51,200 bases of DNA from Escherichia virus TH26. The notes beneath the pieces were generated by a model. The model was given only the letters and a program-made list of their open reading frames with translations, made no database searches and had not been told where the DNA came from. The first letter of the stretch is position 1; each line of letters opens with the position of its first letter. The position numbers and the translations under genes were made by a program. The stretch lies in the sequence record MT446400.1; one strand, given 5' to 3'. Shown here one piece after another: positions 38,581 to 50,643 of this stretch.

Positions 38581-38608
38581 TTCACATTCAATTAATGTTT
38601 CAGAACTG
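38581..38608 (-). promoter_or_regulatory. Conserved promoter-like motif (degenerate copy), putative phage-RNAP promoter
   Basis: Plus strand reads ttcacattcaATTAATGtttcagaactg; matches the 8-member motif family; about 90 nt upstream of the 38503 start. Confidence 0.4.
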
Positions 38609-38627
38609 CTCTGATTTAACAAACAAC

Positions 38628-39302
38628 TCAATACATATTGAATCGTTCGATTGATTTAATCACTAAATCCTTTGTCTCGTCGACAGTGAGTTCAGTTGTT
38701 ATCGAGTCATCAATGCCCTCGATTTGAATCGCAACAAAACGTCCCACACCTGTTACAGTCATGCGGTTGGTTCGGTCGCGAATAATCACACCAGCTTCAT
38801 CTTCAACAGCACGAAGCAGTTTCCAACGAAGTGTGCGATTAGGTACAGCAAAGCCCTTTGTCAAGAACAACTCTTTCATGAGTTCCCCAAGGCAAACAGC
38901 TTCAATGTTCATTCCTCTTCCAACTAGTTCTTGCAACAGGCACAACGTCAACATTTCTAAATTGTTGAAGTGACCAGCGCGCTCCAGATTAAAGAACTCT
39001 GGAGGAACAGTTGAACGAGATTTAACAGCCTGCTTATATGCACGTTCTTCTTCCTGTGCAGCAAGCATTAGCATCTCTGGCTTAATATATTTCATAGCAG
39101 AGAAGCCAGCGCGTGTGGCTTTAATTATGCGACAAGCCTCTTTCATCTTGTAGCGTTGCCACTCGCCTCTTTTCGATTCTGGATTAAAATGGACCCACAT
39201 AATGATAACATCTTCCTTGGCAAGATAGACGGCATCATTATCATTGAGCCATTGCTTGCACGTTGATAGTGCAATCTCTTTGTCATCATCATGATAAGAC
39301 AT
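38628..39302 (-). CDS. Hypothetical protein
   Basis: 224 aa ORF; no motif recognised. Confidence 0.35.
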   Translation of the reverse strand: MSYHDDDKEIALSTCKQWLNDNDAVYLAKEDVIIMWVHFNPESKRGEWQRYKMKEACRIIKATRAGFSAMKYIKPEMLMLAAQEEERAYKQAVKSRSTVPPEFFNLERAGHFNNLEMLTLCLLQELVGRGMNIEAVCLGELMKELFLTKGFAVPNRTLRWKLLRAVEDEAGVIIRDRTNRMTVTGVGRFVAIQIEGIDDSITTELTVDETKDLVIKSIERFNMY

Positions 39303-39303
39303 T

Positions 39304-39630
39304 TTAGTGGCCTCTTAGGATTCGATTATTTGCAGTTTCTGCATCAATTCCCAAATCAACTAATGTAACCAAGCACTGCGAAATCCGCTCTTGCGCAGCT
39401 TTCTCAATGATTTGGTATTTTTCGTCGTTAACGCCTAACACATTCTTGGCATGAATGAGTGTAGCCATTAAGCCATGGCCCAAAGCAACAGCTTGCATTG
39501 CCTGGAGTTCAAAGTTGATTGTGATGCCAGCGAGTTCGTGCTCTTTCTGGATAATCTCAATCAACTCTTCTTTAGATTTGTCTTGTAAGTTCAAAATGGA
39601 ACTCCGTACATTGGTTGGTTTGTTGTCCAA
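39304..39630 (-). CDS. Hypothetical protein
   Basis: 108 aa ORF. Confidence 0.3.
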   Translation of the reverse strand: MDNKPTNVRSSILNLQDKSKEELIEIIQKEHELAGITINFELQAMQAVALGHGLMATLIHAKNVLGVNDEKYQIIEKAAQERISQCLVTLVDLGIDAETANNRILRGH

Positions 39631-39902
39631 TTGCGAGTTGCGATTTGCATGGACTTGTTTGGTCCGAGGTAGAAATACTCCTTAATTTCCTCAAGTGTGT
39701 ATATAGCCTTGATTTCGAGTATATCTTTGAAAGTGTGCTTCCAGAACCCATCTTTCTCCGAAATTCCTGCAGTAATGTCGCTAGTACCATTGTACCACCA
39801 ACGTCCACCAACCAGGACGAAGTGGATTGTTTCTTCCTTACCTGTGGGAGATATTGCTACATTTCTTAATGTCAAAACTTTAGCATGATGCTTGTGAATC
39901 AT
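39591..39902 (-). CDS. Hypothetical protein
   Basis: 103 aa ORF; start uncertain because it overlaps the neighbouring gene. Confidence 0.3.
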   Translation of the reverse strand: MIHKHHAKVLTLRNVAISPTGKEETIHFVLVGGRWWYNGTSDITAGISEKDGFWKHTFKDILEIKAIYTLEEIKEYFYLGPNKSMQIATRNWTTNQPMYGVPF

Positions 39903-40102
39903 TTCTGCAACTCCTTAATTTTGGCAATTAAGTCGCGCATGATTTTAGGACCAATAGCTAAGTCACCAGTCATATCATAAAGGTCACTGCCTATTGCTTC
40001 TGCATTATTCTCCCAACCTTCAACAAGTTCTAACAATTCTTCAATTGTGTAGCCCTTAAACTGAAAGTTTTTGTGATTAATTGCACCGTATTTTTGAACC
40101 AT
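39899..40102 (-). CDS. Hypothetical protein
   Basis: 67 aa ORF; first gene downstream of the ~1 kb non-coding region. Confidence 0.3.
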   Translation of the reverse strand: MVQKYGAINHKNFQFKGYTIEELLELVEGWENNAEAIGSDLYDMTGDLAIGPKIMRDLIAKIKELQK

Positions 40103-48375: not shown

Positions 48376-48390
48376 ATTAAAGGATTTAAT

Positions 48391-48434
48391 TAATAAAGAA
48401 TAAAGAAAGGGCCATCACCTTTCGATGACAGCCC
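48391..48434 (-). terminator. Rho-independent terminator candidate downstream of the RNA polymerase gene
   Basis: On the minus strand: GC-rich hairpin GGGCTGTCATC-GAAAG-GTGATGGCCC followed by TTTCTTTATTCTTTATT, starting 9 nt after the stop. Confidence 0.5.
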
Positions 48435-48442
48435 TGTTTCTC

Positions 48443-50557
48443 TTATTGACAGAAGTAGTAGGCGTGTTCGCTCATCAGAAGCTCTTCAGTTACGATGTTC
48501 TCGTGATACATCTGAATGCCACCAAGTTGCTTAGACAGGTTCTCGAATTGATTGTTGGTTACGAAGATTTCAACATATGCTGCACGAATAACTTCTATCA
48601 TACGTGGAGCATCAGCTAAGCAGCAACGGAAACAATCATGGATTGAAGTAAAGCCACGAAGACCAGCTTCTTTAGCTTTGACTGCAACAGTACGAGCAAC
48701 CAATGCGTCAATACCTTGAATGTAGTTAACAACGAAAGTACGCTTGAATTCTTCTTTAGTTGGATTGGACTCACGAATGGTCCAAGGCTTATTCTCCTGA
48801 ATCTGACCAAAGATAACACGAGTTTGAGAGTCAACACGAATGCTGAACGCATCACAGATTTCACGAGATGGGAAGCAAGGCTTCATTACAACCTGACCGT
48901 CAGTGTGACGATATGTGATGTACTCTTTGTTGAGTTCAACACAACGGTTATGTGCAGCTTCAGCAGTCTTCTCAATGAACATGTTAATCTTAGCACCCAA
49001 TGCGTTATGGATTGCTTCTACACACAGTTCAGCAAATGCCTCAACTTTCTCCATAGGAATCTGGAGAGATGCTGTCATGTAGGAGATAAAGTCAGAAGAA
49101 CCAGTTAATGCAGCTTTACCACCACCATATTGGATAGCCATGTATGGAGTTTTGATAAACTTACGACCAGCTTTCGGATTCAAGAATTCATCCATGATTT
49201 CAGCAGATGGTTTCATTGAAGAACGGTCTAATAACTTCAACAGTTCACGAAGAGATAACTGGTATGGGTCAGATGCTTTAGTTGATGAATCAACCAGACC
49301 TGTTGCACGAGCCATCTCCATGTTACCAGCAATGAATGCCAGATATTGAGTACCAGAACATTTAGCATCTAAGCCAAAGCCTACACGAGAATCACACTCA
49401 CCTGTAGTCTCAAACTTGAACCAGTCCAGAGCCAGACGAACATAAGTGAATGGCTTAGAAGGACGTTCAGATTTGTCCATGTTCATCATGCGAGCAAGTG
49501 AACCAGCTGGATTCTGAGCAACATAGGTTAAGCGCTTAGCACTGCACCATTCACCACCAGAAATATCTTCCAGCTCTGCCATAAACATGTTGTATGCAAT
49601 GGTAGTAGAACCATCTTCGTTAAACTTCTTAACGATGTTCTCAACATTGTGAGAATACAAGCAACGAGCAAAGTCAGATGATTGTGGGTTAGGACCAGCA
49701 CATGCTACATGATACAGACGACCACGGTTATCAGCAAAGTAGTCAGAATAGAGTGTATCCTGATTCATCATTGCTACAGCATTGTTCCAAACATGGAGTT
49801 CAGTCTGGATTGCTTCTGGCATCTGCAAGCCACCATAAGTACGTTGCTCAAGCATGGACTGGATGATGCGAACCATCTCAGTCTCCACATGGTACTCAGT
49901 ATCTTGCAGGAATTCGATTGCAGCTTTCAGAGTCTTGGATGGCTTAACTTTGCCACCTTTAACGAAAGGCTTGCGACGAGATTCAGTTGTTACCTTCTCA
50001 GTGAATGGCACTGAGGTATCTTTGGTTGTAACCAGTTCAACCCACGTGTCAGTCATCTGGAACGATTTGTCCTCGTTCATGGTAATGAAGCCAAAGTGCT
50101 TAGCCAGACCAATCAGGTTGATAGCTGGGTCAACATAGTGCATTGCTTTCAGGTCGTTGTTGTAACGGTTGGCATCAGCAATGGAAGCAGAAGCCAGTTC
50201 AACCATTGCAATGGCTGGGACAACATCATCACGAGTGAATGAGGTCATCATCTTGAAGATTGCGAGAGCAGCAATAGCACAGGTCTGAGGCTGCATATAG
50301 TTCTGTTTCTCTTTGGCACGGTATACCAGAGCCGTAATAGCAGGGACAACGGATTTGATAGTTTGAGTTGAGATAGTTGTCATTTTGCGAGTCTCCAAGT
50401 TAGTTTCGGTTTTAGTTTCGGATTGTGTAGCGGAGGTGATTTCGTCAACCATTTGGTTGCAACGGTCCATCGTATCAAGCACGTCTTTCCAACCGTGGCC
50501 TTCTTCTTTTAAGCGAGCGCCATCAGCAGCCAGTGCACGATATTCTTCATTAGTCAT
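48443..50557 (-). CDS. Single-subunit DNA-dependent RNA polymerase (T7-like)
   Basis: ~704 aa from the ATG behind GGAGA; motifs collinear with T7 RNAP: DNRGRLYHV (T7 DWRGRVYAV), DAKCSGTQYLAF (T7 DGSCSGIQHFSAM), RKFIKTPYMAIQYGGG (T7 RSVTKRSVMTLAYGS), SIHDCFRC (T7 IHDSFGT). Confidence 0.85.
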   Translation of the reverse strand: MTNEEYRALAADGARLKEEGHGWKDVLDTMDRCNQMVDEITSATQSETKTETNLETRKMTTISTQTIKSVVPAITALVYRAKEKQNYMQPQTCAIAALAIFKMMTSFTRDDVVPAIAMVELASASIADANRYNNDLKAMHYVDPAINLIGLAKHFGFITMNEDKSFQMTDTWVELVTTKDTSVPFTEKVTTESRRKPFVKGGKVKPSKTLKAAIEFLQDTEYHVETEMVRIIQSMLEQRTYGGLQMPEAIQTELHVWNNAVAMMNQDTLYSDYFADNRGRLYHVACAGPNPQSSDFARCLYSHNVENIVKKFNEDGSTTIAYNMFMAELEDISGGEWCSAKRLTYVAQNPAGSLARMMNMDKSERPSKPFTYVRLALDWFKFETTGECDSRVGFGLDAKCSGTQYLAFIAGNMEMARATGLVDSSTKASDPYQLSLRELLKLLDRSSMKPSAEIMDEFLNPKAGRKFIKTPYMAIQYGGGKAALTGSSDFISYMTASLQIPMEKVEAFAELCVEAIHNALGAKINMFIEKTAEAAHNRCVELNKEYITYRHTDGQVVMKPCFPSREICDAFSIRVDSQTRVIFGQIQENKPWTIRESNPTKEEFKRTFVVNYIQGIDALVARTVAVKAKEAGLRGFTSIHDCFRCCLADAPRMIEVIRAAYVEIFVTNNQFENLSKQLGGIQMYHENIVTEELLMSEHAYYFCQ

Positions 50558-50614
50558 GATAGTCTCCAATTGATTATGATTTAACTGAAACGGATTAGAC
50601 TTGCGTAGCCTATT

Positions 50615-50643
50615 CATAATCACAACCAACTAATGGTGAGACT
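50615..50643 (-). promoter_or_regulatory. Conserved promoter-like motif upstream of the RNA polymerase gene
   Basis: Plus strand cataatcacaaCCAACTAATGgtgagact; about 60-85 nt upstream of the RNAP start. Confidence 0.4.

Follow-up and report, generated by a model that had tools for sequence, protein, structure and literature searches.

A repeated, gene-oriented motif as a putative promoter for the single-subunit RNA polymerase of a Carltongylesvirus

Results

A repeated motif on the gene strand

A short motif that recurs along the coding strand of a chasevirus genome is a putative promoter for the single-subunit RNA polymerase of T7 fold that the phage itself encodes (48443..50383, minus strand). 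We assign this reading a probability of roughly 80%; it is supported but circumstantial. It agrees with the original prediction, and all features expected at the sequence level of promoters for a single-subunit RNA polymerase were observed. The observations that speak for it are the T7 fold of the polymerase, the contiguous and co-oriented form of the motif, the hairpins beside it, its conservation across five genera and its change with polymerase lineage.

The window, by which we mean the whole 51,200-nt stretch of DNA that was analysed, represents a whole Carltongylesvirus genome of ~51 kb (family Chaseviridae), presented as its reverse complement. Chaseviridae are contractile-tailed phages with a podovirus-type RNA polymerase. 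According to a review, this polymerase uses promoters of similar sequence across the genome, and the ICTV profile of the family describes its promoters as still unidentified. Mapped start sites or binding data for the motif were not found in the searchable literature.

On the gene strand the consensus of the motif is ttnAACATTAGTTGRAWGTGAA. Its 16-mer core, TCACATCCAACTAATG when written on the plus strand, starts at 38582, 40751, 40879, 41020, 44694, 47460, 48310 and 50620, with 0–2 mismatches. The original prediction had named eight near-identical copies in a single orientation relative to the minus-strand genes. All eight are present, each beginning 1–5 nt to the right of the start given for it, and all are on the gene strand. 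When up to three mismatches to TCACATCCAACTAATG were allowed, the window contained 11 matches against 0.64 expected, a count reached in none of 100 dinucleotide shuffles. Ten of these 11 matches had the TCACATCCAACTAATG form on the plus strand, which is sense to the minus-strand genes, and a separate family scan of the window gave 11 sense copies and 0 antisense copies. The family PWM returned 20 sense matches and 1 antisense match at 9 bits or more; the eight strong copies, which match AACATTAGTTGGATGTGAA on the coding strand, scored 25–30 bits.

The information in the motif forms one contiguous, asymmetric block of about 20 nt with an invariant A, G and G, and nothing conserved was seen at a distance of 17 nt to either side of this block. 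The flanks of different copies are unrelated to one another. Of the 11 cores, seven have no overlap with sense ORFs of at least 60 aa, which is true of only 9.5% of positions (binomial P about 1.6e-5). The earlier description of the copies as exclusively intergenic is correct for the eight strong copies and incorrect for three of the weaker ones described below. The ORF overlaps at 50620 and 47460 come from mechanically extended TTG ORFs, and in the related phage phiEcoM-GJ1 (hereafter GJ1) no CDS is annotated over the equivalent sites. From the end of the core to the next candidate start, the eight strong copies show distances of 62, 145, 92, 72, 101, 315, 187 and 79 nt. A position mostly 60–100 nt upstream of a start codon, as had been proposed, thus describes the copies at 62, 92, 72 and 79 nt and leaves out those at 101, 145, 187 and 315 nt. 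The 101-nt distance runs to a dubious 52-aa ORF.

Positions of the copies and of the adjoining hairpins

All copies and hairpins located below are on the minus strand, and the predicted +1 of each strong copy is the invariant G. One copy precedes the RNA polymerase gene (50618..50638, CACCATTAGTTGGTTGTGATT, predicted +1 50621). The distance from it downstream to the ATG at 50383 is ~237 nt, and that to an in-frame ATG at 50557 is 62 nt. Equivalents of this copy occur in GJ1, 4HA13, PM1, Myduc, L009, L010 and L011. At the other end of the polymerase gene, an intrinsic-terminator-like hairpin of 12 pairs followed by a T-run (48408..48435) stands 8 nt past the stop codon, between the gene and the next copy. 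That copy has the exact core (48308..48328, CGACATTAGTTGGATGTGAAG, predicted +1 48311) and is located 118 nt past the stop codon, beyond the terminator. Another copy (47458..47478, TATCATTAGTTGCATGTGAAT, predicted +1 47461) heads a block of small early genes. The copy at 44692..44712 (predicted +1 44695) is 72 nt ahead of the single-strand DNA-binding protein (SSB) gene and directly follows a stable hairpin (44714..44750, z −3.5), whose stem is retained in Y2 and PM1 despite different sequence.

Three tandem copies with no genes between them occupy 41018..41038, 40877..40897 and 40749..40769 (predicted +1 41021, 40880 and 40752, respectively). A stable hairpin (41049..41088, −23.1 kcal/mol, z −3.6) ends 10 nt ahead of the first, a very A+T-rich stretch precedes the second, and the second and third have the identical core CATTAGTTGGAATTGAA. 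The remaining strong copy (38580..38600, predicted +1 38583) lies between the gp28-like and gp29-like genes, 31 nt past the stop codon of the former and 79 nt ahead of the latter, and upstream of it, where the gp28-like gene ends, stands a hairpin of 13 bp (38620..38649, z −3.2). Overall, stable hairpins or terminators were found ~0–25 nt upstream of most copies of the motif.

The eight copies listed originally are genuine members of the family, and four weaker members had been missed. One of them is inside the gp27-like ORF (39348..39368, TTACATTAGTTGATTTGGGAA, 20.8 bits) and is syntenic with matches in GJ1 and 4HA13. The second (30795..30815) falls within the 3'-terminal part of the gp38-like ORF, 63 nt ahead of the next gene, and the third (25439..25459) is at the beginning of the large-terminase gene. 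The fourth lies between the tape-measure-like and baseplate-hub genes (10969..10989). Immediately upstream of it is a hairpin that resembles a terminator (10990..11025, z −3.7); its descending arm leads into a U-rich stretch, and it ends at the base adjacent to the copy. The strong copies are concentrated in the first 13 kb of the genome, and the ~38 kb of replication and structural modules hold only 3–4 weak ones; the PWM scan of the window placed no copy ahead of the major capsid gene. This distribution counts against the promoter reading. If the motif is a promoter, the few weak copies within the 25-kb structural region would mean that transcription reads through it over long distances.

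Correspondence with sites marked in phiEcoM-GJ1

Escherichia phage phiEcoM-GJ1, whose genome paper is said to be that of Jamalludeen et al. from 2008, is ~89% identical to the window. Its record (NC_010106 / EF460875) marks sites as 'putative phage promoter 1-9', which have the same sequence as the motif (AAACATTAGTTGGATGTGAA and variants), the same strand and syntenic positions. GJ1 promoters 1–5 and 7 have their counterparts in seven of the eight strong copies: those at 48308..48328, 47458..47478, 44692..44712, 41018..41038 and 38580..38600 are promoters 1, 2, 3, 4 and 7, respectively. Among the weaker copies, 30795..30815 is promoter 8 and 10969..10989 is promoter 9. The two genomes differ in the tandem array, which has three copies in the window and two in GJ1; GJ1 promoter 5 is a hybrid of tandem copies 2 and 3, so the genomes differ by a 128-bp unit. 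The copy that precedes the polymerase gene and the one at the beginning of the terminase gene are found in GJ1 as well, where they are unannotated. In the window, the site of GJ1 promoter 6 is degenerate, with a score of 13 bits. Since the motif sites are already marked in the GJ1 record, their detection here is a rediscovery and its novelty is low; the record also speaks for the promoter reading, as a prediction made independently. What the present analysis adds is the cross-genus conservation, the covariation with the polymerase, a motif copy ahead of the polymerase gene and the invariant G as the predicted start.

The phage RNA polymerase

The polymerase gene encodes 646 aa, and its frame is open for 58 codons further, up to the ATG at 50557. 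The protein matches Pfam PF00940 (RNA_pol, E 4e-19) and a T7 RNA polymerase profile (4e-9, with motifs A and C aligned). Its AlphaFold model has a pLDDT of 92.8, and the best Foldseek match of the model is T7 RNAP (E 2e-18). On the basis of this model, the protein is confidently predicted to adopt the T7-RNA-polymerase fold. Its identity is 92% with GJ1 gp01 and reaches 97% with other Carltongylesvirus polymerases. Compared with T7, it has ~200 residues fewer ahead of the equivalent of T7 residue 401, which suggests that T7-type N-terminal promoter-binding elements may be missing and counts against the promoter reading. A beta-hairpin at residues ~506–537 corresponds by position to the T7 specificity loop.

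Conservation across genera and covariation with the polymerase

A scan of this and related genomes had been suggested as a check of the original prediction. In six genomes from five Cleopatravirinae genera, the motif occurred 77 times in sense and 4 times in antisense orientation. In a de novo ranking, it was the top non-coding repeat family in five of the six genomes and the second in Myduc. Its positions are syntenic across genera, namely on both sides of the polymerase gene and ahead of the SSB gene, the gp29-like gene, the terminase and the baseplate hub, as well as near 10.5 kb, where two or three copies stand in tandem. Upstream of the SSB gene, the cross-genus alignment displays the motif as a conserved island amid diverged DNA.

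The motif at the same positions changes among relatives. It reads GnGTTAGTTGGnnTTGA in those whose polymerases are 54% identical, CATTAGTTGRnnATrGaGAATAA in those at 43% and TTGGGTTGGAAATGG in those at 40%. The polymerase hairpin segment 506–537 diverges in step with these variants, a covariation that is confounded with overall divergence and draws on 3–6 sites per lineage. In the sister subfamily Nefertitivirinae, whose polymerases are ~35% identical, the motif is absent, and different sense-only repeats follow the polymerase gene.

Discussion

A possible mode of recognition

If the motif is a promoter, the monomeric polymerase would bind an asymmetric duplex element of ~20 bp, and the beta-hairpin at ~506–537 would enter the major groove to read the near-invariant TTAGTTG block at about −12 to −6. 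The DNA would then be opened at the less conserved A/T-rich positions at about −4 to −2, and RNA synthesis would start at or beside the G of the terminal TGA, which is invariant. From there, transcripts would extend along the single coding strand to the next hairpin, a layout that would divide the genome into hairpin-plus-promoter units. Positive feedback would come from the copy ahead of the polymerase gene after host-made polymerase has appeared. We give about even odds to a more specific proposition: the sites are working promoters of this unusually small 646-aa polymerase, which lacks ~200 residues of the N-terminal promoter-binding region of T7 and would therefore have to recognise and melt its promoter partly in another manner, and the copy ahead of the polymerase gene serves to express the polymerase itself.

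The motif is a precise, testable promoter candidate with predicted start positions, and the cross-genus comparison separates its fixed bases from those that vary with the polymerase. Confirmation would make it the first experimentally defined promoter of Chaseviridae and would settle the organisation of transcription in these phages. The result would further be a compact polymerase/promoter pair, orthogonal to T7 and unrelated to it in sequence, for orthogonal gene expression, together with graded natural specificity variants (TTAGTTGG, TGGGTTGG and others).

Other readings of the motif

The motif might instead be the site of another phage DNA-binding protein, such as a repressor, an activator or a nucleoid-type factor, which would act on the host or phage polymerase in these intergenic regions, with the true polymerase promoter elsewhere. 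Its intergenic position and conservation would suit any cis-regulatory site, many small early genes are without known function, and a second repeat family near the polymerase gene means that there is more than one candidate element. We nevertheless regard this as unlikely, as the motif is asymmetric and one-stranded whereas regulator sites are mostly dyad-symmetric, its sequence varies with the polymerase lineage, and no other repeat family is spread along the genome at the heads of gene clusters.

The host enzyme must be the first to read the polymerase gene, upstream of which a copy is located, and strong copies head early-looking small genes. Both facts would be expected if the motif were a promoter for host RNA polymerase, either a non-canonical sigma-70 promoter or one that needs a phage specificity factor. 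Sigma-70 promoters, which consist of two hexamers (−35 and −10) 16–18 bp apart, are like the motif intergenic and upstream of genes. Yet the motif has no conserved −10/−35 partner at any fixed spacing and the matches from a sigma-70 scan overlap no copy, for which reasons a sigma-70 promoter was rejected. No sigma-like gene is annotated in the relatives, and another AT-rich repeat, with TGnTAcAAT-like cores, is a better host-promoter candidate than the motif. A host promoter is therefore a quite improbable reading.

The third possibility, that the motif acts in RNA as a processing site, a stability element or a translation leader, would account for its strict sense orientation, and the hairpins that adjoin it resemble in this respect the RNase III sites near T7 promoters. 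We consider it very improbable. The distance to the next start codon spans 15 to 315 nt over the copies as a whole, the three tandem copies have no intervening genes, and the aligned copies, when read directly, share no conserved self-complementarity inside the motif. Moreover, a motif downstream of terminator-like hairpins would often not be transcribed. Finally, the notion of chance matches or recent local duplications without function is refuted by the shuffles, by the unrelated flanks of different copies, by the synteny across five genera despite diverged flanks and by the conservation island, although the core shared by the copies at 40877 and 40749 and the 128-bp difference from GJ1 indicate that some copy-number change by duplication or deletion occurs.

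Comparison with known phage promoters

The putative promoter resembles those of T7, T3 and SP6 (Autographiviridae) in that it is a contiguous, asymmetric element of ~20 bp, co-oriented with the genes and found where transcription units begin, downstream of terminators. Its reader would likewise be a monomeric polymerase of T7 fold in which a beta-hairpin takes the place of the specificity loop, and the lineage-specific sequence differences are likewise mostly in the upstream half. As to the sequence itself, the motif had been described as unrelated to the T7 consensus, and we concur: TAATACGACTCACTATAG, the T7 consensus, had no match at up to three mismatches, and the best ungapped match of the motif to the T7, T3, SP6 or K11 consensus was no better than that of permuted motifs. 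The polymerase also differs from that of T7, with 646 against 883 aa, 14% identity in the structural alignment and a much shorter N-terminal part. Unlike the T7, T3 and SP6 systems, a copy of the motif stands upstream of the polymerase gene and the virion is that of a myovirus.

The N4 virion RNA polymerase, a phage-encoded single-subunit enzyme of the same broad superfamily, uses hairpin promoters, in which a conserved stem of 5–7 bp carries a 3-nt loop. A promoter of the N4 type was rejected because the motif has no conserved inverted repeat and the hairpins lie upstream of the motif rather than inside it; the only self-complementary 4-mer pair in the motif (ACAT/ATGT) is lost in copies reading AATT. 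In T7, the strongest promoters serve the late genes, whereas the copies of the motif in the late region of the present genome are few and weak.

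By sequence-level criteria, the motif of about 20 bp that recurs in the right-hand part of the window is a promoter of the phage's own single-subunit RNA polymerase with a probability of about 0.8, in agreement with the original prediction.

A motif repeated in the sense of the genes

Over its rightmost 13 kb the window matched Escherichia phage phiEcoM-GJ1 (GJ1) and about 50 other Chaseviridae of the genus Carltongylesvirus with ~87-90% identity on the opposite strand, so the genes of the window lie on the minus strand; high window coordinates correspond to the left end of the genome. 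Positions 1-149 are identical to 51052-51200. The genome unit is therefore 51,051 bp long, and the window contains it once in full and wraps by 149 bases.

Eight copies of the motif had been noted, and a 16-mer core was indeed present at all eight places with 0-2 mismatches; the cores start at 50620, 48310, 47460, 44694, 41020, 40879, 40751 and 38582, each 1-5 nt to the right of the start first given. The gene-strand reading of the motif as first noted is CATTAGTTGGATGTGA. Allowing up to 3 mismatches, we found 11 core matches in the window versus 0.64 expected, a number reached by 0 of 100 shuffles, and a chance origin of the copies was excluded. The predicted common orientation was borne out: ten of the 11 matches are gene-sense. 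The PWM from the eight copies gave 11 sense and 0 antisense sites in the window at 13 bits or more, and the family PWM gave 20 sense sites versus 1 antisense site at 9 bits or more. A site for another DNA-binding protein would be a different explanation for such a family, but the motif is asymmetric and held strictly to one orientation, and we consider this explanation unlikely.

The count of eight missed four weaker copies (39348-39368, 30795-30815, 25439-25459 and 10969-10989). A purely intergenic location holds for the eight strong copies and fails for three of the weaker ones, which lie in the ends of genes. Two overlaps of strong copies with ORFs involve mechanically extended TTG ORFs only, and the equivalent GJ1 sites carry no annotated CDS. 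Altogether, 7 of the 11 cores have no overlap with a sense ORF, which is true of only 9.5% of positions (P about 1.6e-5). The proposed spacing of 60-100 nt before a start codon applies to about half of the copies and not to the rest.

In a first de novo repeat search over the whole genome (12-mers, 2 mismatches), homopolymer and codon-periodic repeats dominated the output; a search of non-coding DNA only with 14-mers was workable. Scanning viral contigs for ACATTAGTTGGANNTGA gave mostly single matches per contig, which look like the chance level for 15 specified bases. Among the matches listed, four contigs (43-53 kb) matched two or three times, split loci counted. A full-text literature search with the motif string returned unrelated primer sequences only.

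Motif anatomy and neighbouring hairpins

Pooling 65 sites from six genomes yielded the consensus ttnAACATTAGTTGRAWGTGAA, a single contiguous block of about 20 nt. Within it TTAGTTG is almost invariant and is followed by a less conserved, A/T-rich R-A-W-G; the block closes with an invariant T-G-A, and the information content drops to background on either side. The A, G and G at indices 7, 11 and 17 of the 21-mer are invariant. No second element was found at promoter-like spacing from the motif. The sigma-70 scan placed no promoter over any motif copy, and its total did not exceed the shuffle totals. The motif is thus unlikely to be a promoter of the host polymerase, for which a -10/-35 partner is missing.

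Most motif copies are preceded, at ~0-25 nt, by a stable hairpin (z-scores -2 to -5), and a strong terminator-like hairpin (48408-48435) stands between the polymerase stop codon and the next motif copy. The genome thus appears to consist of units in which a hairpin is followed by the motif. At the copy before the single-strand DNA-binding protein (SSB) gene, the hairpin is retained in phages Y2 and PM1 with a different sequence. That the motif is instead a signal acting at the RNA level is unlikely, given its variable distance to the gene, its copies in tandem and its position behind terminators.

A T7-fold polymerase

The polymerase ORF (48443-50383, 646 aa) matched the Pfam family RNA_pol (PF00940, 4e-19). 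As a single sequence it had no match among solved structures at E 0.01, and a profile of seven family members matched T7 RNA polymerase (4e-9) with the catalytic motifs aligned (D-x-K-C-S-G-x-Q versus D-G-S-C-S-G-I-Q in T7, and I-H-D in both). The AlphaFold model, built with 75 homologues, reached a pLDDT of 92.8. In a structural search with this model, T7 RNA polymerase chains ranked best (E 2e-18, TM 0.6, 14% identity), with mitochondrial polymerases next. Residue ~198 aligned to T7 residue ~401 in the profile alignment, and the N-terminal part is therefore about 200 residues shorter than that of T7. Just before a helix and the H-D motif, the model contains a four-strand beta segment (residues 506-537) that, judging from the profile alignment, probably stands where T7 has its specificity loop.

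Ahead of the GJ1-type start, the polymerase frame also runs without a stop for 58 codons (50384-50557, minus strand), from an ATG that has a GGAG of its own. The closest protein cluster has a called length of 704 aa, and phage 4HA13 has a separate small ORF at this position; a longer isoform of the polymerase may exist.

Motif and polymerase across Chaseviridae

We compared the window with five members of its subfamily, Cleopatravirinae: GJ1, 4HA13 (Sabourvirus), PM1 (Suwonvirus), Myduc (Myducvirus) and Y2 (Loessnervirus), whose polymerases are 66-92% identical to that of the window. Within these genomes the motif ranks first or second among non-coding repeat families, and at 14 bits the six genomes hold 77 sense and 4 antisense matches. 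Its places are syntenic: on either side of the polymerase gene, upstream of SSB, in a tandem group near 10.5 kb, and before a gp29-like gene, the terminase and the baseplate hub. Upstream of SSB the motif forms a conserved island between diverged flanks.

Three metagenomic relatives, with polymerases 54%, 43% and 40% identical, carry graded variants at the same places (GnGTTAGTTGGnnTTGA; CATTAGTTGRnnATrGaGAATAA; TTGGGTTGGAAATGG). Where the motif stays constant, the 506-537 hairpin hardly varies (SIRVDSQTRVIFGQ); in these three lineages it has diverged. From the sequences, this is how polymerase-promoter co-evolution would be expected to look, a pattern confounded with overall divergence.

The motif is absent altogether from the sister subfamily Nefertitivirinae (polymerases ~35% identical), where different sense-only repeats follow the polymerase gene in the phages VPs20 and pAh6-C (L007 2317-2490, 3554, 5106, 8238, 20996; L008 2739-4083, 7884). 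The repeat of Vibrio phage VPs20 is GGGCTCG-N5-CTCGCCCRCTAGR. It was sought in Aeromonas phage pAh6-C and is absent there; pAh6-C has its own repeat, GGCTCTNCGAGCC, with a 5-bp stem and a 3-nt loop. Both are candidate promoters or terminators of their lineages.

Polymerase homologues 35-53% identical (P0074, P0079, P0107, P0116) are found on bacterial contigs of large size, among them Hafnia alvei (4.8 Mb) and Pseudomonas brenneri (6.3 Mb), which suggests that these phages, supposedly strictly lytic, have integrated relatives. Integrase genes lie near the polymerase gene in two of the metagenomic relatives (L009 and L010).

In the database record of GJ1, precisely these sequences and positions are annotated as "putative phage promoter 1-9", so the motif is an independent rediscovery, in a further phage of the genus, of a prediction that was already known, though unverified. 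GJ1 differs from the window in having one copy (L002 10637-10657) where the window (40749-40897) has two, 128 bp apart. The flank upstream of this single copy is that of one window copy, and the flank downstream is that of the other, which looks like recombination between promoter copies altering the copy number.

Predicted transcription from the motif

With the invariant G as +1, the conserved block runs from about -17 to +3, the span of a T7-type promoter. The motif does not belong to the T7/T3/SP6 sequence family, and by every sequence-level criterion it appears to work like a T7-type promoter. The monomeric polymerase would read the TTAGTTG block with its 506-537 hairpin, the downstream A/T-rich positions would be melted, and transcription would begin at the invariant G, with predicted minus-strand starts at 50621, 48311, 47461, 44695, 41021, 40880, 40752 and 38583. 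Setting ATTAG on the ATTAG/TTTAG of the K11/SP6 promoters is a less likely register, in which the start would fall on a non-conserved base.

Ahead of the polymerase gene there is an in-frame ATG, and one copy lies 62 nt upstream of it. Because a copy recurs at this place in seven related genomes, positive feedback of the polymerase on its own gene is suggested. The 25-kb structural region has weak copies only (among them 25439 and 10969), and the family PWM scan of the window found none before the capsid gene; the late genes would thus need read-through transcription or a further, unrecognised promoter, which is the main loose end. We found no transcript-mapping studies of Chaseviridae in the literature searched.

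Other elements near the motif copies

Behind the three tandem copies is a stretch of ~1 kb without a convincing gene (40103-41104), with a very A+T-rich segment between tandem copies one and two. Its conservation with GJ1 and 4HA13 is mosaic, the GJ1 'SbcC' ORF gp24 has no counterpart in it, and all genera have a large gap at the syntenic spot. The primary origin of T7 sits behind tandem promoters, and the layout here recalls it. Directly after the third tandem copy, a segment of ~100 nt (40650-40752, minus strand) folds stably (-36.1 kcal/mol, z -4.5), contains a T-arm-like GAACGTTCGATTCGTTC and shows three compensatory pairs, among only three sequences. Even with the E cut-off at 1, Rfam matched nothing in the tandem-promoter region, and ARAGORN made no call for the segment, which may be a small structured RNA from the tandem promoters.

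The sole Rfam match in window positions 36000-51200 was a tRNA (37414-37506, minus strand, 93 nt, 41.5 bits), for which ARAGORN made no call; the GJ1 record annotates in the same genome part a tRNA-Arg that 'may contain an intron'.

A further repeat family, AATATTGTSACAATATT(ACATGC), is near-palindromic. Its copies, at least 8 over both strands, occur solely in the DNA to either side of the polymerase gene (47520-48380 and 50870-51200), and the family is conserved in GJ1, 4HA13, Myduc, Y2 and L009. Some copies contain TGnTAcAAT-like extended -10 cores, and GJ1 has a sigma-70 promoter annotated in this region; the repeats could be host early promoters or operator sites. A homopolymer of 32 A on the plus strand (32 T on the gene strand; 50988-51019) also lies upstream of the polymerase gene. 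GJ1 has only short T runs at this place, and the long run of the window may reflect genuine expansion or an error of assembly.
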